Source: Naegleria gruberi (taxonomy: Eukaryota). From it: a DNA stretch of 64,000 nt. The stretch is from the NCBI GenBank assembly GCA_000004985.1, contig GG738867.1, one strand, 5' to 3'. Shown piece by piece: positions 2,897 to 52,707 of the stretch (its first letter is position 1; every line of letters starts with the position of its first letter). A model generated the notes under the pieces. That model saw only the letters and a list, made by a program, of their open reading frames with translations, made no database searches and was not told where the DNA came from. Position numbers and translations under genes: made by a program.

Positions 2897-3853
2897 CTAC
2901 TTGTCACTCTTAGGTGTTTTAATTTCATTTCTGGATGATTCTTTGGTGGGGTTTGGACTAGCCCTAACCGATGTAAGAGGAGTAGTTGAAATCCAATGTG
3001 GAGGACGCATTCCACCAGCAATGCTTGTAATTGGCATTGGAATTGAAGTTGGCATCGGAGGGATAGGAGTAAAGGCAATGCAATCTCCTTGTATCATGTG
3101 CATTTCAAATGATTCCATATCATGAACCATATAAACATTCTTGTTACAAACATTACAAAATCTGACATTAGAAATGGATGGTAACTGATTGAATTGCAAT
3201 GGACATTTGTAAATAAATTCGCAATTCTCAATGTATACTTGTTGCTCTACTGTTTTTGCAAATTCAGGAGTGTCAATAATAAAGTTTTTCCCGTGCAATT
3301 TGATATGTTTCATTCTACGTCTCAGTACATGCATCCAATTTTTAACATTTAGATTCTTTCCAAATTTAGGGAAACAATATTGAACCAGAGGTGCCCAAAT
3401 CAATTGTTGAACTCTTTCAAACTCCATTACTTCATCCTTATCATAATCCATTTGTCCAATGCCATTTTCTTCCAATGAATTTCCTCCAAAATTCTTTTCC
3501 AAATTAAATAATAATTTCAAAGAATGTGAATCCACTTGTGAAAATTCATTCAAATCTCGCAATGGCAAATACCGTGCTATATGTATAGTAATTTCATCAA
3601 TAAATATATCCTTAATTGTTGTTATTGTTGGCAATTTCTTAGCAGTTTGTTTACTATTTTCAGTTTGTTGTTTCATGTTCTTGCTGTCTGTTGTTGAACA
3701 TGAGGAATTGTTTTCTAATTGGGCGAGATCATCCACTACTTGTGATGAATTGTTTGTAGATGATTGTTTCAACCAGCCAATAAAATTGGACATTTTTTTA
3801 GAGATGTTTGGAGGGGACAAGTGAGTGACAGATGTGAGATTTGTTGTTATCAT
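2897..3853 (-). CDS. Hypothetical protein with an F-box-like N-terminal motif and a Cys-rich C-terminal region
   Basis: True ATG at 3853. Motif IKDIFIDEITIHIARYLPLRDLNEF is F-box-like. CxxC pairs (CNVCNK, QGDC) suggest Zn binding. No confident family assignment. Confidence 0.4.
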   Translation of the reverse strand: MITTNLTSVTHLSPPNISKKMSNFIGWLKQSSTNNSSQVVDDLAQLENNSSCSTTDSKNMKQQTENSKQTAKKLPTITTIKDIFIDEITIHIARYLPLRDLNEFSQVDSHSLKLLFNLEKNFGGNSLEENGIGQMDYDKDEVMEFERVQQLIWAPLVQYCFPKFGKNLNVKNWMHVLRRRMKHIKLHGKNFIIDTPEFAKTVEQQVYIENCEFIYKCPLQFNQLPSISNVRFCNVCNKNVYMVHDMESFEMHMIQGDCIAFTPIPPMPTSIPMPITSIAGGMRPPHWISTTPLTSVRASPNPTKESSRNEIKTPKSDK

Positions 3854-4243
3854 TCATATCTTTTAGCATGATGGTAATTATCTTTGGAATGATTAGCCAT
3901 TTTTTAGTATCCTTCATGAGTGAAATATGGATAGCAGGAATTGATATTCAGAAAACCAAATCAAAGTATATATACACAATTTCTAAACATTAAAAAGGAG
4001 AGACATGGTTGATAAATAATATCAATAAGAAAACAAATTCCAAAGTCTCACTCACTCCAATATTGAGGAAGGAAATTGAATTTAGCAACATTTAAGAATC
4101 TCATTATTCCTCAATACATTAAAAATTAGCGCTACAGATTCTTGCTTTTCTCCATTTTTGGACATATTTAGGGCAGATCTTCTCGGTCAACTTGGTAATT
4201 GTAATCTCTAGTTTTTTATATTAGCAGCAAGAAGGTTAAAAAA

Positions 4244-5227
4244 ATGAATCTAAAGCAACTTGCCAGAATCCTTTCCAAGTATTCTTCAAATACAACAGTT
4301 TGTGCTCAATTTTTGAACATTAATGTCAAGTCAACAAGTAGTAGTAGATTCTTCTCTCAGAAATGTCAAGTTTCTAAAGAATCCGATCGTCATAATGACA
4401 TAAAATGTATGTATTCAATGGCGTCTAGTATGAAAGCAGTGAAAAGCTATCAAGAGGCTCTTGAATTCTATCAAAAAATTATTCAGGTTTCCAAAACAAG
4501 TCATCATCATGAACACATTGGAAATTCTCAACAGGGACACATAGTGGGGATGTCTTGGTTAGAATCTGGAAATTGCTTGAATTCTCTGAATAGATATGAA
4601 GAAGCTTTGAATTGTTTCTCAACCATCTTAAATTTCCATCCAAACACTTTTTATCAAATATTGGGACATTATGGAAGAGCTACCTGTTATTTCAATATGG
4701 GAAAGTATAGAGAAGCATCTCATGACTATTCTCAAACTATTCTGCTATTTGCATCTAAAAAATCAACTCAGCAACATGTCATTGATTCAAGTTTGTGTTA
4801 TTATCATAGAGCTCTGTGTCATCTCAACTTGAATGAGTATCAACAAGCTATTAGTGATTTCTCTGTACTACTCCGTGACAGTTCAGAAGAGGAAATTATT
4901 GAACTAGAGTCTAATTTAGCATTGGAAAATGAGGATAAGAAATTAGTAGTCTTCTTTTCAAGGGCAAATGCTTTCATTCATGCCAACAAGCTGAAGCGAG
5001 CACTTGATGACATAAATCGTGGTATTGTACTTCACGAAAAACAAATCCGACATCATAATGTCCAACCACATGAATTGTATAGAATCAAAGCAGAGATACT
5101 GTATAGCATGAAAGAGTTTAACAAGTCTCGTGACAATTTATTGAAAGCCATTCAATTGAATCCAACAGACGAGAAAGCTCAATTATCCTTGTCTTTACTG
5201 AATAGTAGTTTGAAAATGGATAACTGA
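4244..5227 (+). CDS. TPR-repeat protein
   Basis: True ATG at 4244. Repeated 34-aa units with the A/G/Y/F pattern (EEALNCFSTILNFHPNTFYQILGHYGRATCYFNMGKYREASHDY...). Confidence 0.55.
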   Translation: MNLKQLARILSKYSSNTTVCAQFLNINVKSTSSSRFFSQKCQVSKESDRHNDIKCMYSMASSMKAVKSYQEALEFYQKIIQVSKTSHHHEHIGNSQQGHIVGMSWLESGNCLNSLNRYEEALNCFSTILNFHPNTFYQILGHYGRATCYFNMGKYREASHDYSQTILLFASKKSTQQHVIDSSLCYYHRALCHLNLNEYQQAISDFSVLLRDSSEEEIIELESNLALENEDKKLVVFFSRANAFIHANKLKRALDDINRGIVLHEKQIRHHNVQPHELYRIKAEILYSMKEFNKSRDNLLKAIQLNPTDEKAQLSLSLLNSSLKMDN

Positions 5228-5294
5228 GAATGTAAAATAAATTAAAATGCAATGTTTTTTTCAAAATAACCAAACCCACAGCGCAGTAAAAGAT

Positions 5295-5368
5295 TGCCTC
5301 CCTTGGGAATCGAACCCAAGACCTCTGTCTTACTAGGACAGCGCTACTGCCAACTGAGCTAGGAAGGC
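5295..5368 (-). tRNA. tRNA-Thr (anticodon AGU)
   Basis: Reverse complement folds as a cloverleaf: acceptor GCCTTCC/GGGAGGC, anticodon arm CTGTC-CTAGTAA-GACAG (U33, AGT at 34-36, A37), T-arm TTGGG-TTCGATT-CCCAA, discriminator A. Length 74 nt. Confidence 0.8.
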
Positions 5369-5488
5369 TTACATTCATGATGAAAATCTGTTTTATAGAT
5401 TTTTGGAGTATGAGTAAAAATAGGATTAAATTCAAATAGCACGACTTATTGTCCTCAAACTTTTGTGTTTACGTTTAATAAAACAAAA

Positions 5489-7325
5489 ATGAACATTAAG
5501 GAAAGCGAAAAGAATGCTGATCAAAATTCTGTAAGGTTCACCTCTGTAGCACTATCAAACACTTTTAGAATACAAAAATTGAAGATCGGAACAAGAAATA
5601 CTAAAAACAACTCATCAGGGACCCTTATTGATTCCAATCCTAATCAAGATCAAGAGGAGGAAATAATTATGATTCCAAAAAGCAAAAACTCGTCAAAACA
5701 GCATCAAATTCCATCTTCTCCAAAAGTTACAAATTACGTTTCAAATCATGTAAATAGAATGGTTGCATTTCCTCAAAATCTTCATCAACAACAGAAGAAA
5801 AACCGATCAAAATATGCTCTCCTATTGCAATCATTAGATTCCGATTCAATTTGGAATATTTTGGATTTCTATGGTGGAGAATGCAACAAATCACTTTCAA
5901 CACCCAATGGAAAGATAATGATTAAGGAATTTATTAGGAGATATTATGGAAGATTTAAGGATAGATTGGTGAGATTCATGTTCAGATTTATAAGAATCGA
6001 TTTCAGACATGTTAATTCACCTTCTGAAATAATTAGTCTAATTTCAATACCATTACTTTCTCTTGATGAATTTAAATTCAATAAGAATAATTCCGCCACA
6101 AAGTATATTTTTAATTTATTCGAAATATCAAAGATGGAAATGCAGAAGAAGGATTGGGTGAATTCCTATAGAATGATTATTGAGAGGAGATTCTTGAGAT
6201 TTACAGATTTGATTGAGAATCAATTAGGAAAAATAGTGGAATTGGATGTTACTGGAACCTATTTATATAAATGCCCTAAATTACTGGAATTTATCATTTC
6301 GAAATGTTCAAATCTTAAAACTTTTAAAGGGGAAGATGATCTAACGGATAATGTTCGGTTTTACAATATTGAAGAATATTATGAAAAGTTTCCAAAAGAG
6401 TTTTTCAAAGCATTTGAGAGTAATGGTCACTCGTTAAAGCACCTCTCATGGAATGGGTCACCTATGCAATTTGAGATGAGTTGGTGGACAAGAGGTTTGG
6501 AGTTTTTGGACCTTAGTAAGTATTTTCACAACTATTTACATTTTGACATTGAAAGGAGGGTATTATTCATTTGCATTGATTCAATCTCTCTTTGTAAATT
6601 GGACCAATTTGAAAGTGTTGAAAATTAAGAGATTAAGAAAGTTTGGAGGAAGTTTTGCAAAAAATGATGAGAACGAAGAGGCAGAATGTTTATCTGAAAT
6701 GATTAATTTTGTTAGGAATATGCACTTGTTGCGACATTTAGAATTTGGAGATGATATTTCACCACAAGATTTTGAACAATTAGCCGGAAAAACTTCTATC
6801 GAATCATTTTCACTTCAGTTATATAGTAGAAACATGTATTGTGATTCATACTTTCAAGTCATTTCCTCCTTTAGAAATTTGAAACAATTATCAATTGCTT
6901 TGACTTGTAAATTAAGCAAATCTGTGTTGAAAGTAATTGGATCAATGAAACTGGAACAATTTAAAATACTAGAAACTGAATTTTATGAAGAACCAGAAGA
7001 GTTGGAAGATACAGATATTGAGAGTCAATCAGAGGAATCAAGAACAGATCCAATCGAACATTTTGAATTGGTTGACATTTTGGATATGATTTCAAACCTT
7101 TCCAATCTTCAACTATTTTCGATCAATATTTCGAAACATTTAGAAAGAGATGTGTTGAATTATTTTCAAGATTATGAAAGTTACAAGACCATCAAAGCAT
7201 TCAATGGGAGATATACTAACTCGTCAGAAGGTTATACATTGGATGTTTATGGAGTTGTCAATATGTGTGATGTTATTCATTCCGATAGTAAGTTGTTTAA
7301 AATGAAATCCTTGTCTCAAGTTTAA
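5489..7325 (+). CDS. Leucine-rich-repeat (RNI-like) protein, two exons. The intron donor is at 6516 (GTAAGT). The acceptor is at either 6555 (40-nt intron) or 6615 (100-nt intron).
   Basis: The ORF-track start at 5465 is GTG; the first ATG is at 5489. Two ORFs in different frames are joined phase-correctly by GTAAGT...AG. The downstream part carries LxxLxxLxL repeats (NWTNLKVLKIKRL, NLKQLSIALT, NLSNLQLFSINIS). Confidence 0.5.
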
Positions 7326-7590
7326 TAGTTTATGCAACTTTTGAATTGGAACGATTGAGAGAAGGAGCAGTGCACAATAAGCTCTACCTCAATCAATCCT
7401 CTCACCGACAAGTATATTCTTTGTAAATATTTCACTTTAGTTGTACAACTCCTATGAAAATCTTATTTCGTGGAGATTGCTGGATAAATTGCGAAACAAA
7501 TAATAAAGCCGCAATGGAATGCCAACTCCGTCTCCTATGAATGGTTCAAAATTTACAATTCCTTTATTAATAAGGTAAATAAAGGATCAA

Positions 7591-9326
7591 TTAAATACAA
7601 TTTGTACAGGAGGAAATAAAACCCTTATCTGGTTGGTATCTACAAAGTGTACATCTAGCTCTTCTGTTAATATCCAAAGTGCCAACATCCATGACATTAT
7701 GTACAACAAGAAACTGCAAATCGTCAATGATTTGTCTGGTCTTTTTGATCATGGTATGGTCTTTTGAAATCATGTAAGAGAACAAGTCTTTTGGGAGTGG
7801 ATACTCCGGGTGCTCCCTTTTAGATTTTTCCACAGCCTTTTTTAGAGACATGTATTGCAAAAATCCAATGTCTGAACTGGAGCCACTCGATGCCTTGATA
7901 TTCTTAACTATTGGCACCATTTCCTTGAATAATCTTTCAATGTCCAAAAGTCTAGAAATTGGAACGCTTGGGTATGTTTGCTGATTTTCAGAATTAATGA
8001 GACAAGTAGCAAATCCACAATATGGTGATGGTCGAATATTGTAATTTCCCTTTCCAAGAACTGATAGGAATGGTTCCAAAATCATTCCCACACTGGCAGG
8101 GAAAAAGTCATCCAATTTAATTTGTCCCTTAGTATCTTCCTCAATTAATTTTAGCAACTCCAAAGGATCCACATTGAAAGACTCGTCAACTTCATTAAAA
8201 GGTACAGCACATCTAATAAACATGAGTAAATCAGATGATTATCAAAACTTACTTTTTAAATTGTTTCATGATTTGGTTTGGTGTTCTCTCAGCCTCGATA
8301 ATAATAAATCTACAAAATCCCTTCATTGGAAAACGAAGTAAATTCAAAATTGAATCCAACTTTGGGAATGGTCGACTGACAACAATTCTGACAATTATTG
8401 TCAAATTGGTAATTTGTTTCAATATCAAAAACGCATTGTTCAACTCTAAAGCAGTTTGCTTTTCAATTCCTTTTTGAAGGAATATTTGTACAGATGGGTG
8501 AATACGAGGATTCAACAAGCAGGTATCGTCCAGCTTTGAAAGTTGAACAACTCTATCAAATGATAACTCTAAAACTATTGGATTATCCTTTGGTACATTG
8601 GCAAGAATCAAATTCACCTTCCTATTCAAAGTGACCATATCTTCCACTAATTTTCCATTCACTCTAATTATTACCTGTAATTTTAATTTATCAATTAATG
8701 AACATTTAATTATAAATATATTATTAATAATTAATAATCATAATTAAACATACATTCTTATCTTTTGGTATTAATTTCATAGTTTCCTTGATGGAATGCA
8801 AAATATGTTGGTCAGGAATAAATTGTTCCTCCGAATAAACATCCAAATCAACCATGAGTGGTGTGTTCTCTATTATTGTTCCATCATTATGAATCTGTTT
8901 TTCCAACTCTTCAATATCTGGATTGAAATTAGGTTTTGATTCTAGAATATCGGGAGAGTAATCCAACGTCTTCATGAAGAAATCAAAACTAGAACTAATT
9001 TTAATTTCCTGATTGCCATGTTCTTGACACTTAATTACTAGCCAAATATCATCCTTCCTCTTTACTATGTGACCTTCTTTCCAATGTTCCTTTTCCAATC
9101 CCTTTCCATCTTCAACAAACGAACAAATTGGGCAAATTGTTTGAGTTAGAAATAATATATTAATATCGGCCTCTGTTGATGATGATGATGGAGGTACCAA
9201 GAGGAGTGATGGTGAATTCACCAACCCACTATTACCACTCGATGATGAGGTGGCAGGAGAGGAGGGTGCCGATTGAGACCCTTTCGATGACTTGGAAGAT
9301 TTTTTGAAAGGGCTCCAAGAGAACAT
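7591..9326 (-). CDS. Three-exon gene for a hypothetical Cys-containing protein. Exons are 9326..8754, 8674..8253 and 8212..7591; the introns are 79 and 40 nt.
   Basis: True ATG at 9326. Junctions AAT|GTATGT...TTACAG|GTA (phase 0) and AA|GTAAGT...TTATTAG|A (phase 2) restore a continuous reading frame across three track ORFs. CxxC motifs at the N-terminus (CPIC) and C-terminus (CTLCRY..CTNC). No family recognised. Confidence 0.55.
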
Positions 9327-23547: not shown

Positions 23548-23592
23548 CAGGAATCTGAATAGATTCGTATTGTAAACGTAATAAAACATTAC
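23548..23592 (+). repeat. Solo 3'-terminal fragment of the same non-LTR retrotransposon family as the element at 37072..41386
   Basis: aatctgaatagattcgtattgtaaacgtaataaaaca matches the LINE 3' end at 41351-41386 (aatctgaatagattcgttattgtcgtaataaaaga) with a few indels. Confidence 0.4.
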
Positions 23593-23981: not shown

Positions 23982-25115
23982 ATGTCTGTCTATGGAGACT
24001 TTCAAGCTCTCGTTGTTGACAACGGTTCTGGTATATGCAAAGCTGGTTTTGCTGGCGATGATGCTCCAAGAGCTGTCTTTCCTTCAATTGTAGGTAGACT
24101 AAAGCGACAGTCAATCATGATTGGAATGGGTGAAAAGGATGCCTATGTTGGTGATGAAGCTCAATCCAAGAGAGGCATCTTGACCTTAAGGTATCCAATT
24201 GAACACGGTATTGTTACTAATTGGGATGATATGGAAAAGATTTGGCATCACACTTTCTACAATGAATTGAGTGTTGCTCCTGAGGAACATCCAGTCTTGT
24301 TGACTGAAGCTCCTTTGAATACAAAGGCAAATAGAGAAAAGATGACTCAAATCATGTTTGAAACCTTCTCAGTTCCAGCCATGTATATTTCCATTCAAGC
24401 TGTCTTGTCTTTGTATGCTTCTGGTAGAACTACTGGTATAGTTTTAGAATCTGGTGATGGTGTTTCACACACTGTTCCAATTTTTGAAGGTTATTCGTTG
24501 CCACACACCATTTTGAGATTGGATTTGGCTGGTCGTGACTTGACTGATTGCTTGATGAAGATTTTGATGGAAAGAGGTTACTCATTCAACACTACTGCTG
24601 AAAGAGAAATTGTAAGAGATATTAAGGAAAAGCTCTGTTACGTTGCTTTGGATTTCAAAGAAGAAATGAAAGTTGCTGCTGAATCGTCTTCTGTTGAAAA
24701 GTTATATGAATTGCCAGATGGCACTGTTATAACAATTGGTAACGAACGATTCAGATGTACAGAAGTTTTATTCCAACCTAATTTCGTTGGTATGGAAGAT
24801 GCTGGTGTTCATGAAATAGCCTTCAACTCAATTGGTAAATGCGACATTGACATTAGAAAAGAATTGTTTGGAAATGTTGTCTTGTCTGGAGGTACTACCC
24901 TGTTCGAAGGTATTGCTGAAAGGATGACCAAGGAATTGACTGCTTTGGCACCAGCCTCAATGAAGATAAAGGTTGTAGCCCCACCTGAAAGAAAGTACTC
25001 AGTCTGGATTGGAGGCAGTGTCCTCGCGAGCCTTGCAACCTTTCAGCAGATGTGGATATCGAAAGAAGAATATGAGGAGGTTGGTCCTGGTTTTGTTCAT
25101 AGAAAGTGCTTCTAA
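23982..25115 (+). CDS. Actin, single exon, with a divergent N-terminus
   Basis: True ATG at 23982. Roughly 80% identity to conventional actin over 377 aa ([30 protein letters not shown] ... [40 protein letters not shown]). Confidence 0.9.
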
Positions 25116-25206
25116 ATTGGCTCTGTAAATCAGTACTTCCAATGAGTTTAAAACAAGTTGAATTTTCTGGTGGTGTATTTGAATAATGTTAAGATAATTG
25201 AAAAAA

Positions 25207-25324
25207 GACTACAGCACCACAGGTTCCCAAGTTGTCTCCAACCTCAGTACTGATGTGGCTCGACGATGCTTAACTTCTCAAATCGGACGGGATGAGGTGT
25301 ATTCATCGTGATATGGCCGTAGCC
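25207..25324 (-). rRNA. 5S rRNA gene (copy 1)
   Basis: Reverse complement is GGCTACGGCCATATCACGATGAATACACCTCATCCCGTCCGATTTGAGAAGTTAAGCATCGTCGAGCC...GGTGCTGTAGTC followed by a T6 Pol III terminator. Helix I pairs the 5' and 3' ends. Conserved loop-C/loop-E motifs CCCGTCCGAT and AGTTAAGC are present. Confidence 0.85.
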
Positions 25325-35762: not shown

Positions 35763-37057
35763 TTAAGCTATTTTATGAGAGAGTGAATGTCTTTTGCCTA
35801 TAACTTTGATTTCGTGAGATGAAATATCAAGTCCGAAAACTGAATCAAACGACTTGTCAATGGAGAGCTTGTCCAACAAAGATTTTCTGTCAATTCCTAC
35901 CTGTTGCAAAGTTGATTCAGAATTATCTTGAAATTGATTATTTTTGTAATCTGTGCAAATCCAAATATCTAAATTACAGTTAGATTTTTCGAATACATGC
36001 ATTGGAATCAACTCGGTAGTACCTTCCAACATGCTTTCATCCAAAGAGGGGAAGTATTGACAAAACTCAACTCCTGGCTTCATATCAATAATAACACCTT
36101 TGAGCTAATAATGATTTCAATGAATGTTAATTCTCAGCAAATTGTGCAGCTTACCTGTTTACAGAGGAGGAAATTGGAATCAAAAGATGGATGAGAGGTA
36201 TCACTAAAGAAAATATTCCACGTTGTGTTCGGCACTTTGTAACTCTTTACAAATCCAAGACAATCCACCAATTTGGTCTTATAACTTTCAATAATTTTGA
36301 AAGTATTCTCAGTAGAGGGTTCTCTCATTAACATGGGTCTCAATTCAGGGAACTCCTGAGCAATTTCATTCTTTGTGTAGAGTTCATCTCCCTTGATGAG
36401 AGCAAGAGTTTGACCCAATTGAAAGGCAAAACTCTTAATCATATCCTTATTATTGACAAGTTCATAAAAACTAGAATCTGAAATGTCAATTATATCCTTC
36501 AATGTTTTTATATAATGTCCAAAATCATTTGATCTCAAAGTTTCCTTAATTTGAGCTCTGTACTTTTTATATTTGGTGAAATAGGTGAGAATAGCTCTAC
36601 ATGCTCTAACAACTTTCAAAATGGTAACTCTTTCAACAGTGTTTTTGATTGGATGTTCAAATTCTTGCTTTGTTAAATGATTAGCATAGGTTTTCAACAA
36701 TCCATTATTGGCTTCATCTTCATTTCCTATTTTAATCAAATTCCAAAATAATTATCATCAAATAATTCATAATTTACCTTTGTAAATCTTTACAATTATT
36801 CCATCCTGTATCAGTGCAACATTTCTATTCTCCTCAATTTCCTTTCCATTTTCAATAATTTTCACACTCCGACAAAATACAGAACAATCCTGAAATGATG
36901 GAAATGGATTCGGATCCACAATGAAATAGAGAATATCCTTATCGGTTGAATTTTCTGAACCGTGAATAACATATCCATCACATTTAATTTTATGTGCCAC
37001 CATAGATTCAGTCCCCATGTGAGAGTCAGCAATTAGTTCTGGTTTATTGTCTTGCAT
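35763..37057 (-). CDS. Three-exon hypothetical protein (about 398 aa), possibly with a longin/roadblock-like N-terminus. Exons are 37057..36778, 36726..36155 and 36104..35763.
   Basis: True ATG at 37057. Introns of 51 nt (G|GTAAAT...AAAATAG) and 50 nt (CAG|GTAAGC...CATTATTAG) join three track ORFs in phase. No family recognised. Confidence 0.45.
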
Positions 37058-37071
37058 TTTTTTTTGATATT
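37057..37071. repeat. Target-site duplication (5' copy) of the LINE insertion: TTTTTTTTTGATATT
   Basis: Exact 15-nt direct repeat with 41387..41401. Sequences outside the repeats differ (ttgca vs aaaga upstream; cgtcc vs gtaaa downstream). Confidence 0.65.
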
Positions 37072-37756
37072 CGTCCTTCTAAAAAAATGCCTCAACATGA
37101 CCACCCTCCGGATACGGAAGGGAGTACTCTGCTCGCTAACAGAATCTTTGTGTTAGAGAGAGCATTAGAAACCTCCCAAAAGGAAAACACATGTCTCCGG
37201 GAATCTATTCAAAATTTTGTAAATATTATAAGCGACCACATACTAAATAATAATAATAACGGTCCAATCACACTTGTAAATAATCTAATGGATGAGGCAA
37301 ATAAGTTTACATCTATTACACAAAAAAGTGGAAATCCATCAAATGATGGAAATCTATCAAATAATAGAAATCTATCAAATTGTGGAAAAACTACTGAATC
37401 GGAAATTATTCCAGATGACAGTGGTAAAACTAAAAATAGACCTGCTACATATTCAGAAATAACAAGGTCAACTCCTATTAAAAGTCAACCAAATATCAGA
37501 TGCAACTAATCACTCTGGTACTTCAAAATATAAATTAGTTAAATTATCACACACAGATAAGGATGAAATGGATGAATTCTGTAAGAAAAATATTTCTCTT
37601 ATTGATAAGCACAAAAACCATTTCAATTTCTATTTCAAACCTTCTATTGAGATTTTAGATCTTAAAATAGAACAGAAAAATAGATTATTTCCTTATTTAC
37701 CTACTATTAATTCTACTAATAATATTGCAACAACTAAATCAGTTGCTAAAACAACA

Positions 37757-37796
<40 letters not shown>

Positions 37797-37840
37797 TTAA
37801 TAATAATAATATTAATAATAATAATAATAATGAAAATAAT
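37757..37840. repeat. (AAT)n microsatellite encoding a poly-Asn tract inside LINE ORF1
   Basis: Visible tandem aat units with occasional att interruptions. Confidence 0.8.
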
Positions 37841-40734
37841 CTGTTAATATTACTCACCAAAGCTTTTTCAAGCCTTGTTGTAGGATTGGCAAATAATAAT
37901 GTAATTCCATTAGATAATAACTTAATGGAAATTGTCAATATTACTAATAATATAAATAATGTAAATAATACTAACTCTGTAATGATAGATGATGATTTGA
38001 TTTCAACATCATCTAATGAATCTACTCAACCTTGAGTGGAACTACCACTAGTTTAAGACTTGCATGCTACAATGTTAACGGTCTATACAAGCATGCAGTC
38101 CATAAATCTGTAACTCAAGAATTGAAATCTATGTGTTTAACACATGGAGTTCATATGATGAGTATTACAGAAACACACGTTAACACTACTGAATTAGAAA
38201 TTAAAGTTAGAAATTCTGGTTCAGGTTATTTATTATTTAACTCCCTTATGGGTCGATCTAAAGGCTGTAAAGGAACAGCAGTTATGCACTTTTTAAATAA
38301 TCATAGAAAGCGTAACATTACCAATAATAATTTAGTACCTGGAATCTTACAATGGACAAGATTTGAAAGCAGGGGAATTCCAATTAATTTATTTACTATT
38401 TATTTAAGTGGCAGATCAGATGATTATGAAAATGATCAAGAAGCCATTAACAGTTTTATCAATGCTGTTTTAACATGTAAAGATGAACATATTATTTTAA
38501 GTGGGGATCTTAATATTGATACTCAAAACCCCACTACTACAAGAGAAAAGGATTGGATTTGGATTCTTGAAATGTTAAAATTGACAGAATTCAAAACACC
38601 AAATTATACATGGATTAGACGAAGTCAGGGAACTTTAATTAGATCTAGACCTGACCATATCTTTGTCTCAAAGAATATTAGAGTGGTAAAGGAAGTAATT
38701 ATGACACCTTTGACCACTAATGATCATGTCCCTTTTTATTTAGATTTAGAATTTAAATCTAATCTTACTTGGAGAACTTACTTTAGTAAGAATAAGAGGA
38801 AAAGAATGTACGAAGCAATTAATAAGTGTAAAATTGACAATTTTCAAGAGCTGAATCAAGCAATTGAGGCTCAAATAATTAAATATGGATCCAAAGTAGA
38901 TAGATTAGGAGTTGGAAGAATTTCTACAGCATTTAAAGAAGAAATTCAAGATTTAGAGGATGAAATATTATCTAAAATTAATAACCCTAATATTCCTCAA
39001 TCAGAAATACAAGAACTACAAACACTCCTAAAAGAAACACATATTAATAATGCAAAAGAGATTAAGGAAAAACTTATAGATGAATTTAATGATAACTCTT
39101 CATCTAGAATGTATCAATTTGATAAAATGATACACTCTAACCAAATTATGTGGAAAGACCTTAACTTTGAAGAAGAAGAAATAGTGGATTACTTTACAAA
39201 CAAATTTACCTCCACTAATCAACAACCAACATTCACACCAAGTAATTCAACTATCAAAGAAGGTCCAGATTGGAGCAATTCGATTCATATTAAAGAGCTA
39301 CAAGATGCTCTCAAACGAATGAAATCAAACACTTCTGGGCCTGATCTAATCTCACTTGATATAATTAAACATCTTACAGAAGCTAATCAAGGAATCCTCT
39401 TAGAAGAATATAATAGATGTTTAAGAGATGGTGATATTCCACAAAATTGGAAACAAGGATGGGTAAAACTCATTCCTAAAAGAGAAATTAATACCTTAAG
39501 TGATATTCGCCCAATTACTATTTTACCAATATTTTACAGAATATTATTTAATATTATAGCATTTAGATTGAGATCTTGGGCATCAACTCATATTAATGTT
39601 AGACAACAAGCATTTATTACAGACAGAAATACTTTGAATCATGGTGTATTACTCTCTGCCTTAGCAATGAAAACAAGGAAAAGGACTTTTATTTTAGTGA
39701 ATTTAGATATAGAAGGGGCGTATGATGCAGTCGAATTACCTGTCATCAAAATGGCCCTAGACCACTGCAAATACCCTTCAGAACTTACTCAATTCATTTT
39801 AAATGCTTATGCTAACCATGAACTTCAATTAGAAATTGATAATCATCTCTCTGATAAATTTAAGAAAACAAGAGGAATACCACAAGGCTGTCCACTGGCC
39901 CCTCTTATTTACGATTGTATTACCCAATTAATAATTGACAAAGCAATTGATAAGTGGAAGATACCAATCAAACCAGGCAAACTATGTGCAAATGATATTG
40001 CACTCTGCTGTTTTGCTGATGATATGAATGTTGTATGTGACAGATATGCCAAATATAATGAGAGACTAGACAATATTCATGATTGGTTACATCAATTATT
40101 ATTTAAATTGAATGCTAAGAAATCAGTAGCAACTCTATTACCTAAAAAGAGCACAGTCTCACCTAAAATCAAAGGTACTCCAGTACCTAAACAGAAAAAC
40201 CTTAGAGTACTTGGCCATTACCCTTGGGATGATACTTTGGTAACACAAGACATCCAATCCAAGATAGACAAATTCACAAAATCATTAAGATTTTTACCAT
40301 TATTCAAATTACAGCCAACAAACCTTAAAATAATTATGCATGCTAAAGCAATCAGCCTATTCACTCACCTCTCAAAAATCAATATAATCCCTTTAAAGAA
40401 AGCTCAGGAAATAGATCGTGCAATTAGAGGTGCAATCAGACGTAAATTATTAATGGACAGAGCAACTCCAACAAGTTTCTTTCACCTGCCATTAGAAGAA
40501 GGTGGATTAGGATTACCATCAATTGAGGAATTCTCTGAAAGAATGAATTTAAGAACTATGAATTTAATCGCCAATAATAAGAATAAGTTAATAAGAAAAG
40601 CTTTCAAACATGGTATCAAACATTGTGAGGAAACTAAAGATAATATGTATGCTAAATGGTTATCTGTACTTTAAGAATATAATCTCACATTTGTGCAGAA
40701 TGATACGAACTTTAGAATAGCCGGNNNNNNNNNN

Positions 40735-40774
40735 NNNNNNNNNNNNNNNNNNNNNNNNNNNNNNNNNNNNNNNN
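40735..40774. other. Assembly gap (run of 40 N)
   Basis: Literal n characters in the sequence. Confidence 0.99.
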
Positions 40775-41386
40775 ACTCAGAATCACACCTCCTTGTTAAG
40801 GATGGTGTTGTCATCTTCAATCATAAGAAGATGACCATAACAAGACATTTAAGTGTAAGACATAATAAGATGAATGAAAACCCTAACTTTATTCTAAACC
40901 AAAGTTGGGATTCTCTTAATGTGCAATACCTTAAAACTCGTCTTACTCCTAAAACTAAATACTTTATATGGAGAAATTCCATCAATGCCCATATCAATTT
41001 TGGTAAGGGTAAAAGTTTCTGTTACGATTGTGGTACAGAATCTGATTTATTCCATTACATTCATGAGTGCCCTGGCTTGGATAGTGCCAGGTATTTTTGT
41101 CAGTCAAAGATATCTGATATTCTTGAAGGGAGAGAGTGCTTACTTTCTCATTTTCAATTCAAACCAGAAAAGCATCACCATGCATTACATTTCCATCATA
41201 ACGGAATCACCTCTTTCGAAGATGGATACATGCAATTCCATAAAGACATCGCTAAGAAGTGGCCAGAGATCCAAGGTGCCATTTCTAACTTTGTCGGCCG
41301 TTCCTATTCTAACTATTATATTGACTCCAAATAATTTATATAACCTATGAGAATCTGAATAGATTCGTTATTGTCGTAATAAAAGA

Positions 41387-41401
41387 TTTTTTTTTGATAT
41401 T
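41387..41401. repeat. Target-site duplication (3' copy) of the LINE insertion: TTTTTTTTTGATATT
   Basis: Exact match to 37057..37071. Confidence 0.65.
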
Positions 41402-41537
41402 GTAAAGTGCAATTTCGTTTTGGAACTTTCTAAGCAAGGAATTTATGCAATTAGCTCTATGCAAAGAGTTGGATTTAACAACTTGGGAACTCGAGCTGCA
41501 TAATTATTTAACTCACAAATTAGTCAACTAGAGATAT

Positions 41538-42887
41538 TTAACAACAACAAAGGAATGAACTTCCAGAAGAGAATTCAATGTCCAATCCAATTAATTCGGC
41601 CAACTCCTTAACAAATAGAATGTCATCTCCACATAGACTGAGAGCACCACTTTGTTTCTCAGTGACAATCATCTTCTTATTGATTGAATCATTCATAGCA
41701 AGGAATAAAATTGTTTGATTATTGATAAAGGCAAAGTATTTTCTGAATAGATATTCCTGTTCTGTGCGTGACATGTGTTGAATTCTTGAAAGCAGATCGT
41801 CTAACATTTTAGTTTTTTCCACATCACTTGATGATTTCTTGAGAATTTTTGCCAATTCCTTATCATGAATAATAATTTCCTTCTCCTTGATCAAGATATC
41901 AAAGCATTCCTTCTTGGTTTCCAGAATTTCATCGCATGTACAGGCCAAATAGTGATCCTGTTTGGCAATTTGTTGATAATCATTGAGGGAGACATAGTAT
42001 CCAAACACAATATCATTTCCAAAATGTTTTTCAATATATTGCATATTCTGTTGAGGAGCAAAATAAGTAAGAAAGTGAATGGCATGGACTTTTGAACAGC
42101 CATTCAAACCGATTGGTACGTTGGTAGAGATGAGTACTCTCTTCTTCAATAAGAGTGCCTTCCACAATGTGAAAATATTCTCCCTATAAGAATAGAATAG
42201 AGAAACCAACGATCCAAAATGAAGATGGTTATCAATCTCTATTTTGGTAATTTCCGATAATCTGACCTTCTTAGAGCCATTGAAAGAATCATTTGCTGTA
42301 AAGTAATTGTTCAATTTTTGAATGCAATCAGAGAGGGTTTTCTTTCCCTCTAGACTTTCGTCACATCTATTCAACTTGGCCAATAACTTTTTCAAGAAGG
42401 AGGCATGAGCCATCATTCCTCTATATTCATTACAAATAACTCCCATAGCTCGTATTCTAGAACCACGATCCAACTCCTCCGATCTGAAAATATCTACACA
42501 AGCCATTCCAAAGAATTCTTGTGTATTATGCACGTGTCTAAACATGACAATATCTGTATCAAGTTTATGTGTTCCACTTGGTAAACATTTAAATTCAATA
42601 CCTCCCAAATCGATCGGATATGATTCATTTTGAAATTGATATTCAATTCTATATCCAATCTTTAAATCAAATTTAACAACGAACAAACAAACAATATTCG
42701 TTTCAATCATTGGGTTTACAATTGATACTTGATTAATTTTCTCCACCATTTCCGAATCATTCTTTTTCATTTCAAATTTCCCAGAATCATGTCGTTGTGC
42801 AGCTAACCTCTGACTCTTCAGCAATGAGACAGTTTCATCAACTTCATCTTCAGAATTCGGAGAGGGAGCAACTCTATTTTGTGGCAT
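41538..42887 (-). CDS. DENN/AVL9-like (uDENN-DENN-dDENN type) protein, with a C-terminal CCC tail
   Basis: True ATG at 42887. N-terminal uDENN-like IVCLFVVKFDLKIGYRIEYQF; overall resemblance to the AVL9/DENND6 family from memory. Assignment is tentative. Confidence 0.4.
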   Translation of the reverse strand: MPQNRVAPSPNSEDEVDETVSLLKSQRLAAQRHDSGKFEMKKNDSEMVEKINQVSIVNPMIETNIVCLFVVKFDLKIGYRIEYQFQNESYPIDLGGIEFKCLPSGTHKLDTDIVMFRHVHNTQEFFGMACVDIFRSEELDRGSRIRAMGVICNEYRGMMAHASFLKKLLAKLNRCDESLEGKKTLSDCIQKLNNYFTANDSFNGSKKVRLSEITKIEIDNHLHFGSLVSLFYSYRENIFTLWKALLLKKRVLISTNVPIGLNGCSKVHAIHFLTYFAPQQNMQYIEKHFGNDIVFGYYVSLNDYQQIAKQDHYLACTCDEILETKKECFDILIKEKEIIIHDKELAKILKKSSSDVEKTKMLDDLLSRIQHMSRTEQEYLFRKYFAFINNQTILFLAMNDSINKKMIVTEKQSGALSLCGDDILFVKELAELIGLDIEFSSGSSFLCCC

Positions 42888-48574: not shown

Positions 48575-48692
48575 GGCTACGGCCATATCACGATGAATGC
48601 ACCTCATCCCGTCCGATTTGAGAAGTTAAGCATCGTCGAGCCACATCAGTACTGAGGTTGGAGACAACTTGGGAACCTGTGGTGCTGTAGTC
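48575..48692 (+). rRNA. 5S rRNA gene (copy 2)
   Basis: GGCTACGGCCATATCACGATGAATGCACCTCATCCCGTCCGATTTGAGAAGTTAAGCATCGTCGAGCCACATCAGTACTGAGGTTGGAGACAACTTGGGAACCTGTGGTGCTGTAGTC followed by TTTTTT. Differs from copy 1 at a single base. Confidence 0.85.
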
Positions 48693-49083
48693 TTTTTTCT
48701 CTATAAAACCAGATCTATTCTAACAAAAGCGCACTATTATTGGGATTCTCCTTCAATTGTTGTTTTAACACCACCACATTGCAATCCTTTGAATATTGTA
48801 GACATACAATAGATTCTTTGAATAACCCTTTCACCATCACCAAATGATGTACTTCATCCTGAAATCTTGGACACCTAGGAAATATTTGGCTGTTGTGGTA
48901 AATTAGGTACCAGCTTAAAAACAAAGCAAAATGAGAAACACGTTTCATCATTTGGCGAAATCACAATGCAAAACCATACAATCTATTTAATGACTTAAAG
49001 TCTTTTCGAAATATTTAGAGAATTTTATCAAAATTTTTATTAGTTTTACGCAAATAAATTAGTTAGTTTTCAATATAATACAA

Positions 49084-52100: not shown

Positions 52101-52398
52101 CCCAGCAACAATTGGCTACCTCAACAACCAAAAAAAGTACCAGAAATCATCTACCGCCACCAGTACACACGATTTTGGAGTTACCCTCTTTGGAAAGGAT
52201 GGAGTGTCAAGTAACGAAGGCGCTTCAATTCAATCAACTAACCAATCAATATCTGAAAATGGCTAAAGAGTCGCAGATTTTTTGATTGACCAGGAGAATC
52301 CTTTGCTAGGTCAAAAATATATGAAATTCAAAAAAAGTCTTATTAACATCTTCTAAAAAAAAAAGAATAATCACCTTAATTTGGCAATAATTGGTAAA

Positions 52399-52487
52399 AG
52401 GCGACTGAGGGAATTGAACCCTCGACCCTCAGTTATCTCGACATTTCTGCCTACAAGACTGATGCACTGCCACTGTGCTAAGCCGCC
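52399..52487 (-). tRNA. Intron-containing tRNA, anticodon most likely UGU (Thr), with a 17-nt intron after position 37
   Basis: Reverse complement: GGCGGCT-TA-GCAC-AGTGGCA-GTGC-A-TCAGT-CTTGTA[GGCAGAAATGTCGAGAT]A-ACTGA-GGGTC-GAGGG-TTCAATT-CCCTC-AGTCGCC-T. Acceptor, D, anticodon and T stems all pair. U33 and A37 are in place. Followed by a T4 terminator. Confidence 0.6.
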
Positions 52488-52707
52488 TTACAATCGATGA
52501 ATTCACTCAAAAATAAATGCAAAACAATTGCTAAAATAAAAGTGTTTATCTTAAATTCCTCATTCTAACTCTCTATTCCAATCTTTACTCATTCACATAT
52601 TCACAAACACAAATCAAAAGAACTTTAATTGCCAATTATCTAAGTTTGTGAGCTCATGTCATTCGTGCCAACACTAAATTATATATCAAACTTGAATTGT
52701 CATCAGA

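Follow-up and report, generated by a model that had tools for sequence, protein, structure and literature searches.

A recent LINE insertion abutting a Naegleria gruberi start codon, and a probable 16-bp target of its retrotransposon family

Introduction

Long interspersed nuclear elements (LINEs; retrotransposons without long terminal repeats, non-LTR) with sequence-specific integration are known for multicopy targets, namely ribosomal DNA (rDNA), telomeres, and tRNA, snRNA and spliced-leader genes. The present analysis concerns a LINE in a 64,000-nt stretch of Naegleria gruberi DNA (contig GG738867.1, 33% GC; this whole stretch is called the window), which is inserted at the start codon of the protein-coding gene NAEGRDRAFT_67417. 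The insertion had been taken for a chance landing at a start codon; our results indicate that it probably represents a sequence-specific Naegleria LINE family with a 16-bp target overlapping start codons.

Several described systems resemble this locus in part. The R1-clade LINEs of insects (R1Bm in 28S rDNA, TRAS1 and SART1 in telomeric repeats) share with it an apurinic/apyrimidinic endonuclease (APE) and, apparently, sequence-specific integration; exact junctions at the 5′ and 3′ ends, a target duplication of fixed length (14 bp in R1) and a proposed target-complementary RNA 3′ end are also common to both. Their targets are the multicopy rDNA or the telomere repeat, whereas the Naegleria 16-mer overlaps start codons of single-copy genes; moreover, the Naegleria ORF2 (second open reading frame) family has an RNase H domain, and there is no poly(A). 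SLACS, CZAR and CRE of trypanosomatids occupy one defined position in spliced-leader RNA genes, with the host promoter next to the 5′ end of the element. They too are protist LINEs at a fixed site, only a few bases away from where transcription or the leader begins, but they possess a restriction-enzyme-like endonuclease, lie in the orientation of the host gene and use a tandem multicopy target, while the Naegleria LINE has an APE domain, stands head-to-head with its host gene and is found at different single-copy genes.

The Dictyostelium elements TRE5 and TRE3 are likewise APE LINEs of a protist whose genome is compact and AT-rich, and they too integrate at specific positions that spare coding sequence; their insertions lie at a set distance from tRNA genes, whereas the Naegleria determinant would be a sequence motif. 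The clades I, Ingi, Tad1 and LOA, which are mostly not sequence-specific, agree with the Naegleria family in having two ORFs, the ORF2 order APE, reverse transcriptase (RT), RNase H and CCHC motif, and 5′-truncated copies, and differ from it in ORF1, for which we detected neither zinc knuckles nor a Pfam domain. Human L1 is comparable in its target-primed reverse transcription, duplication of ~15 bp, frequent 5′ truncation and, as a concept, an antisense promoter that affects neighbours. However, L1 ends in poly(A), cuts at 5′-TTTT/AA-3′ and generates a duplication that starts with A on the element sense strand, in contrast to a Naegleria duplication starting A-T9, no poly(A) and a conserved box in the 3′ untranslated region (UTR).

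Naegleria genomes are reported to contain about 0.3% transposable elements (TE) (bioRxiv 10.64898/2026.06.24.734286), and no published description of Naegleria LINEs was found in the searchable literature.

Results

The insertion and its empty allele

The following features make up the insertion site:

35763..37057, minus strand: NAEGRDRAFT_67417, three exons, 397 aa; its ATG abuts the insertion
37056..37071, no strand: left copy of the target-site duplication ATTTTTTTTTGATATT; exact repeat, single copy in the empty allele (contig L003)
37072..41385, plus strand: full-length LINE, 4314 bp as assembled, ~4.65 kb with the gap filled
41386..41401, no strand: right copy of the target-site duplication, exact 16-bp repeat
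41402..41537, minus strand: native upstream region of NAEGRDRAFT_67417, 136 bp, also the 3′ flank of DENND11; the LINE now lies between this region and the gene
41538..42887, minus strand: DENND11-like gene XP_002677419.1, exact protein match; upstream neighbour of NAEGRDRAFT_67417 with and without the LINE

The window contains two exact copies of the 15-mer TTTTTTTTTGATATT (37057-37071 and 41387-41401). A search allowing up to one mismatch returned the same number of matches (two, against 0.36 expected), and the concern that it might be a frequent simple repeat was not borne out. The A preceding each copy (37056 and 41386) is also identical; the perfect direct repeat of the first-pass annotation is therefore exact but measures 16 bp (ATTTTTTTTTGATATT) and not 15. 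A repeat scan revealed no other long direct or inverted repeats at the bounds of the element.

An empty-site allele, which had been suggested as a check in other isolates, was found in contig L003 of the ENA metagenome assembly ERZ929261, in which the genes on either side are found on two short contigs. L003 comprises DENND11 plus 187 nt beyond its stop codon, in the order DENND11, spacer, a single AATATTAAAAAAAAATG and the gene, and the LINE is absent. Its alignment to the window minus the LINE and minus one repeat copy was gapless, with 99.0% identity (1606/1622), and the sequence reads ...CTTTACAATATTAAAAAAAAATGCAAGAC... unbroken across the junction (at length ...GCACTTTACAATATTAAAAAAAAATGCAAGACAATAAACC...); the alignment to the actual window stops at 41386. 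As a near-identical strain has the target once and no LINE, the repeat is a target-site duplication, and the insertion is younger than the 1% strain split. A young element is likewise indicated by the protein of NAEGRDRAFT_71761 (P0004), located on another N. gruberi scaffold, which is 100% identical to the window copy over 393 + 182 aa, i.e., all 575 aligned residues. The locus is thus a recent insertion with a true target-site duplication at the ATG of a gene, as the first-pass annotation had supposed, and we regard this as practically certain.

We considered an assembly artefact, in which the gap join would link the 5′ and 3′ parts of different LINE copies. The element is multi-copy, it holds the only N run of the window (40725-40774), and the only three amino acids in which it differs from P0004 (at 40645, 40672 and 40708) all lie less than 80 nt from the left gap edge. 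However, the flanks are contiguous in L003 and syntenic in Naegleria lovaniensis, which means that this is one locus and that the scaffold join over the gap is not chimeric. Doubt is limited to the internal sequence near the gap, and the artefact has next to no probability. The clustering of the three differences suggests low-quality sequence at a contig end.

The host gene and its start codon

The gene model with exons 37057..36778, 36726..36155 and 36104..35763 and GT-AG introns gives a translation identical to XP_002677418.1 (397 aa), in agreement with the minus-strand three-exon gene proposed previously. Pfam gave no domain for this protein, of which N. lovaniensis, Willaertia and others have conserved counterparts. 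The start codon of the gene is the complement of CAT 37055-37057. In the orthologues, as in the N. gruberi protein, 12-30 residues precede the first conserved block, and the reconstructed empty site contains an in-frame stop 45 nt upstream of the ATG; hence, the ATG at 37057 is the native start.

The first two bases of the left duplication copy are the complement of the "AT" of this ATG, and the copy retains the native leader of 15-16 nt, AATATC-A8-ATG on the minus strand, so that the entire native 5′ UTR has not been replaced, contrary to what had been stated. The LINE runs on the plus strand; therefore, the gene faces its 5′ end, head-to-head, with the ATGs of ORF1 (37087, plus) and of the gene (37057, minus) diverging 29 bp apart. 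What has taken the place of the promoter is antisense LINE 5′ sequence and not, as the first-pass annotation had it, the 3′ end of the element. It is the native upstream region (41402-41537) that now points into the LINE 3′ end.

In N. lovaniensis, the order DENND11, gene and Arf-like gene is kept without the LINE, and the orthologue starts with A7-ATG (...GAAGAAAAAAATG). An additional 393-aa gene with no Pfam domain was observed there between DENND11 and the orthologue (L032, PYSW02000003.1, 2395-3684, minus strand); the 151-bp N. gruberi spacer lacks it.

Structure of the element

The element consists of the following parts:

37072..37086, plus strand: 5′ UTR CGTCCTTCTAAAAAA, 15 nt
37087..38035, plus strand: ORF1 in two frames, 37087-37509 followed by the +1 frame, which is open from 37463 and stops with the TGA at 38033-38035
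38032..40724, plus strand: ORF2 up to the gap, with APE at ~38068-38736 and RT at 39472-40218
40725..40774, no strand: assembly gap, 50 N, hiding about 130 aa of ORF2
40777..41334, plus strand: ORF2 C-terminus, 185 aa, stop at 41332-41334, 100% identical to P0004
41335..41385, plus strand: 3′ UTR, 51 nt, ending ...GTAATAAAAG, no poly(A) tail

The element is a non-LTR retrotransposon of the APE type: it has a non-LTR RT domain, an N-terminal APE, a duplication that is single in the empty site, and a 5′-truncated copy in the same window. ORF translation, Pfam and motif comparison all agree with the earlier description of an ORF1 with a poly-Asn tract and an ORF2 with APE, RT and a CCHC knuckle. 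The RT domain scored 99.2 bits with Pfam RVT_1 (cut-off 29.6; ORF2 aa 481-729), and in a PDB sequence search it matched R2 reverse transcriptases (E 7e-18) better than L1 ORF2p (E 3e-9). The APE domain of the window copy reached 23.5 bits with Exo_endo_phos_2, below the cut-off of 27.4, which the relatives P0001 and P0050 exceed with 31.3 and 30.1 bits, and a weak PDB sequence match of the ORF2 N-terminus to ExoIII spans the catalytic ends. RNase H was found in relatives (PF00075 with 51 bits in P0001 and 61 in P0050; motif IHTDGS in P0004), and the alignment with P0004 places this region of the window copy inside the gap. Since the gap, which measures 50 N and not 40 as noted earlier, replaces ~130 residues, the true length of the element is ~4.65 kb. 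The CCHC motif, C-x2-C-x7-H-x4-C at 41020-41070, is invariant among five relatives.

In ORF1, the frame changes at about 37463-37509 and the poly-Asn tract lies at about 37755-37840; neither a Pfam domain nor gag-like zinc knuckles were detected, and a comparison with the ORF1 of L001, a related element in a Logan contig, detected no similarity. ORF2 has an in-frame TAA at 40672-40674, 53 nt from the gap, where P0004 encodes Lys; it is one of the three differences at the gap edge and may be a read-end error. With the ORF1 frame change, this TAA and the gap, the window copy is not demonstrably intact. Of the earlier view of largely open ORFs in a young and possibly active copy, the youth holds, and the intactness is doubtful.

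By domain order alone, and with RNase H seen in relatives, the architecture APE-RT-RNase H-CCHC is like that of the I/Ingi/Tad1/LOA group. The ORF2 search returned a handful of relatives, all from Naegleria or Naegleria-like, with 542-1135 bits, and the next match had 75 bits. As the nearest non-Naegleria proteins are only 19-27% identical (E 1e-16 or weaker), the family may be a separate lineage. Assignment to the L1 clade was rejected, as the element ends ...GTAATAAAAG, directly followed by the duplication A-T9-GATATT. The R2/CRE/NeSL type was rejected as well, given the N-terminal APE and a C-terminus with only a CCHC motif. A profile search with the ORF2 C-terminal alignment gave no scored match.

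The 5′ UTR of L001 is alike in sequence and length (15 nt), and that of a Naegleria fowleri copy in length only (14 nt). A leader of 14-15 nt in all three elements implies that the 5′ junctions are precise and that the 5′ end of the window copy is complete. The 3′ UTR contains the box GAGAATCTGAATAGATTCGT at 41349-41368 with a potential 6-bp hairpin (GAATCT/AGATTC), and AATAAA at 41378-41383, the extreme 3′ end of the element. The box is the same in L001 at 20/20 nt despite 57% protein identity, and at the corresponding place in the N. fowleri element lies a different hairpin. The folding energy of the hairpin is not significant by itself (z about -1.2), and the case for it lies in the 20/20-nt conservation with L001. 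An Rfam scan of the LINE region showed nothing above the threshold. The box-plus-tail pattern of the 3′ UTR had 0 matches in metagenome collections, and nothing was found for the box in viral contigs. The 18-mer box alone had 16 metagenome and 8 prokaryote-genome matches, which were discarded as chance, all being without LINE coding context.

The same 16-mer flanks a relative in N. fowleri

A LINE whose ORF2 is 48-50% identical to the window copy is located in N. fowleri (VFQX01000037.1:186312-201286, here L029) at 3387-8979 of the segment. It is flanked by the identical 16-mer ATTTTTTTTTGATATT at 3371-3386 and 8980-8995, and the left one overlaps the CAT that is the start of a minus-strand TELO2 homologue (965 aa, intact). 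This copy is decayed, with ORF2 in three frames and about 35 aa deleted; both flanking 16-mers are still perfect. The host flanks beyond the 16-mer are unrelated between N. fowleri and N. gruberi, and the 5′ and 3′ UTRs of the LINEs have diverged, save for the A7-ATG context of the ORF1 start, which is shared with host genes. An arbitrary target, as which the 15-mer had first been taken, fits these observations poorly: an identical 16-mer around a 48%-identical relative at a different gene looks like the specific target of the family.

In total, two complete junction pairs (the window and L029) and two partial ones (L001 and a solo fragment described below) were examined. L001, with 57% identity, starts ATT|TCGTCTTC... 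(in another excerpt of this edge, ATT|TCGTCTTCAAAAAAAATG) and ends ...TTAATAA|ATTTTTTTT, and both ends are compatible with 16-mer flanks. Every exact 16-mer copy present in the Naegleria DNA examined flanks a LINE.

The family is multicopy and possibly active in N. fowleri, as 30 gene models at at least 15 loci form one cluster at 90% identity (P0039-P0052, the cluster of P0005) that includes an intact ORF2 of 1203 aa, FDP41_012763. A second N. gruberi family, 58% identical, is represented by NAEGRDRAFT_54134 and NAEGRDRAFT_54470. A remoter relative of about 46% identity with a different 3′ UTR was seen in L004 (3261-3335) and L030 (ENA ERZ27315067), which share a 3′ layout of hairpin ATCGGG...CCCGAT, then AATAAACAG at the end, then a T-rich flank. 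L004, L030 and L031 were set aside as evidence on the 16-mer, being uninformative owing to different 3′ ends or no junctions.

Start-codon context and the solo fragment

The usual start context in the window is A6-A9 directly before the ATG, e.g., at 42887 (minus), 46281 (plus), 60500 (minus), 44057 (plus) and 56383 (plus), and ORF1 of the LINE has the same context. This suggests that very short A-tract leaders are a general feature of N. gruberi genes. The target AATATC-A8-AT(G) would be a special case of the A-tract context, and this would account for the position of both insertions next to start codons; its GATATT part is absent from the general start context of the window.

A further piece of LINE sequence, reported earlier as a solo 3′ fragment at 23548-23592, is indeed present:

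23551..23589, plus strand: solo 3′-UTR fragment of a related LINE, ~40 bp, extremely 5′-truncated, intergenic, upstream of an actin gene

At 23551-23586, it is 89% identical to the LINE 3′ UTR, with the 18-nt box exact and the AATAAAA end shared, and it is followed by ...CAG|ATTTTTTTAAT, which contains only the A+T7 part of the target and no GATATT. No significant duplication surrounds it, the best flank match having been reached by 427 of 500 shuffles. The actin gene is intron-less and lies at 23982-25115 (plus strand), about 400 bp downstream.

These data bear on the alternative that the LINE inserts non-specifically, with an endonuclease preferring the A/T runs found before Naegleria starts, and that the N. 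fowleri 16-mer is a coincidence. The frequency of A6-A9 before ATG in the window, the A+T7 flank of the solo fragment and the near-targets with A8-ATG at 42887, 46281 and 60500, all unoccupied, are in line with it. On the other hand, base composition (33% GC, calculated by hand) gives an exact 16-mer match a probability of about 1e-8 per position, yet such a match is found at both ends of an independent element in another species; the hexamer GATATT lies outside the general start context; and the empty allele had 15 of the 16 bases exactly at the insertion point. Non-specific insertion is thus highly improbable, and we consider it likely, from the junctions compared, that this LINE family integrates sequence-specifically.

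Other features of the window

Targeting of tRNA genes as in the TRE elements was ruled out, as no tRNA gene lies within about 50-100 bp. The window has only two, 11-32 kb from the LINE: tRNA-Thr(TGT) at 52398-52488 (minus strand, 91 nt, probably with an intron) and tRNA-Thr(AGT) at 5295-5368 (minus strand, 74 nt). Two dispersed 5S rRNA genes in inverted orientation were identified at 25206-25324 (minus) and 48575-48693 (plus) with Rfam RF00001 (106 and 105 bits); the 154-nt inverted repeat of 93% identity in the repeat scan is explained by this pair.

Discussion

A pathway of target-primed reverse transcription would account for the observed arrangement. The target would be the 16-mer 5′-AATATCAAAAAAAAAT-3′ on the gene sense strand, i.e., AATATC-A8-AT of the ATG. 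The endonuclease would nick this strand after ...AAAAT, before the G of the ATG, and the nicked 3′ end would prime the reverse transcription of the LINE RNA. The second strand would be cut 16 bp away, after GATATT, and fill-in would duplicate the 16-mer. In the resulting head-to-head arrangement, the gene would keep the last 15-16 bases of its leader, farther upstream it would meet antisense LINE 5′ sequence, and the native upstream region would come to lie about 4.65 kb away, facing the LINE 3′ end.

As AATAAA is located at the extreme 3′ end, LINE transcripts probably run into the downstream 16-mer. The read-through 16-mer RNA tail could then pair with the nicked target in the manner described for R1Bm, whose RNA reportedly must include downstream target sequence for accurate initiation (PMC7265360). 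Such pairing would make the 16-mer self-perpetuating and explain why the same 16-mer occurs in both species, and the conserved box and hairpin of the 3′ UTR would fit "stringent" template recognition.

The R1Bm precedent could also be read in another way, namely that the element carries the 16-mers at one or both ends of its template RNA, owing to initiation upstream and read-through at the 3′ end, and that annealing to partial matches converts the flanks, with no staggered-cut duplication. That the 16-mer is perfectly conserved while the UTRs and proteins of the elements have diverged to about 50% would agree with this, as would transcripts extending into the flank, and so would the fact that both window copies read AATATC where the empty allele reads AATATT. 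Yet the empty allele contains a single motif, correctly placed and with flanks as in a simple duplication, and this motif differs from the window copies only in having T where both have C. As 15 of the 16 bases were already present at the insertion point, the 16-mer was a pre-existing target and not merely cargo. In addition, in annealing target-primed reverse transcription the primer strand keeps the target sequence, so converting both copies needs extra steps, and the constant 5′ UTR of 14-15 nt fits a transcription start at the first base of the element. Carriage of the 16-mer instead of duplication is therefore improbable, though less so than non-specific insertion.

Several points weigh against a strictly sequence-specific family. 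The junction sample is small, with NAEGRDRAFT_71761, 54134 and 54470 and at least 15 N. fowleri loci outside it. A 41-Mb genome should contain few exact copies of the 16-mer, which leaves the target supply of such a family unexplained, and the motif is not conserved at the orthologous N. lovaniensis start. The solo fragment, with neither GATATT nor a duplication, means that the 16-bp specificity is not universal, or that this copy is old or of another subfamily. The mismatch between AATATT and AATATC requires an additional single-nucleotide polymorphism, which is plausible at 1-3% divergence. Finally, the nick positions, the read-through, the pairing of the RNA tail, the use of the polyadenylation signal in Naegleria and any effect on gene expression are inferred only. 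With these points included, we still consider the account as a whole likely, i.e., a recent full-length Naegleria LINE in the 5′ leader of NAEGRDRAFT_67417, from an apparently sequence-specific family and with the mechanism outlined above.

A more far-reaching reading is speculative, and we think it unlikely to be correct in all its parts. In this reading, the element would be a "start-site-homing" LINE that takes advantage of the A-tract core promoter and leader of Naegleria genes and always inserts head-to-head in AATATC-A8-ATG, duplicating the 16 bp, with the host leader kept and the gene still expressed. The T9GATATT directly upstream of the first base of the LINE, whose own 5′ UTR has only 15 nt, might then act as a bidirectional promoter shared by the element and the gene. 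The displaced native promoter might transcribe the LINE in antisense, and the read-through 16-mer tail might partly guide targeting. The intact TELO2 gene beside the decayed N. fowleri copy hints that such insertions are tolerated in the long term.

If sequence-specific integration is confirmed, a fixed target overlapping the start codons of ordinary single-copy protein genes would add a new class to the known targets of LINEs. It raises the questions of how a compact genome with so few TEs tolerates such insertions and where the core promoters of Naegleria lie. Pairing between an RNA tail and the target as a specificity factor would be of interest for programmable retrotransposon-based insertion tools. 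The locus itself is a presence/absence polymorphism between 99%-identical N. gruberi strains and offers a natural experiment on promoter displacement.

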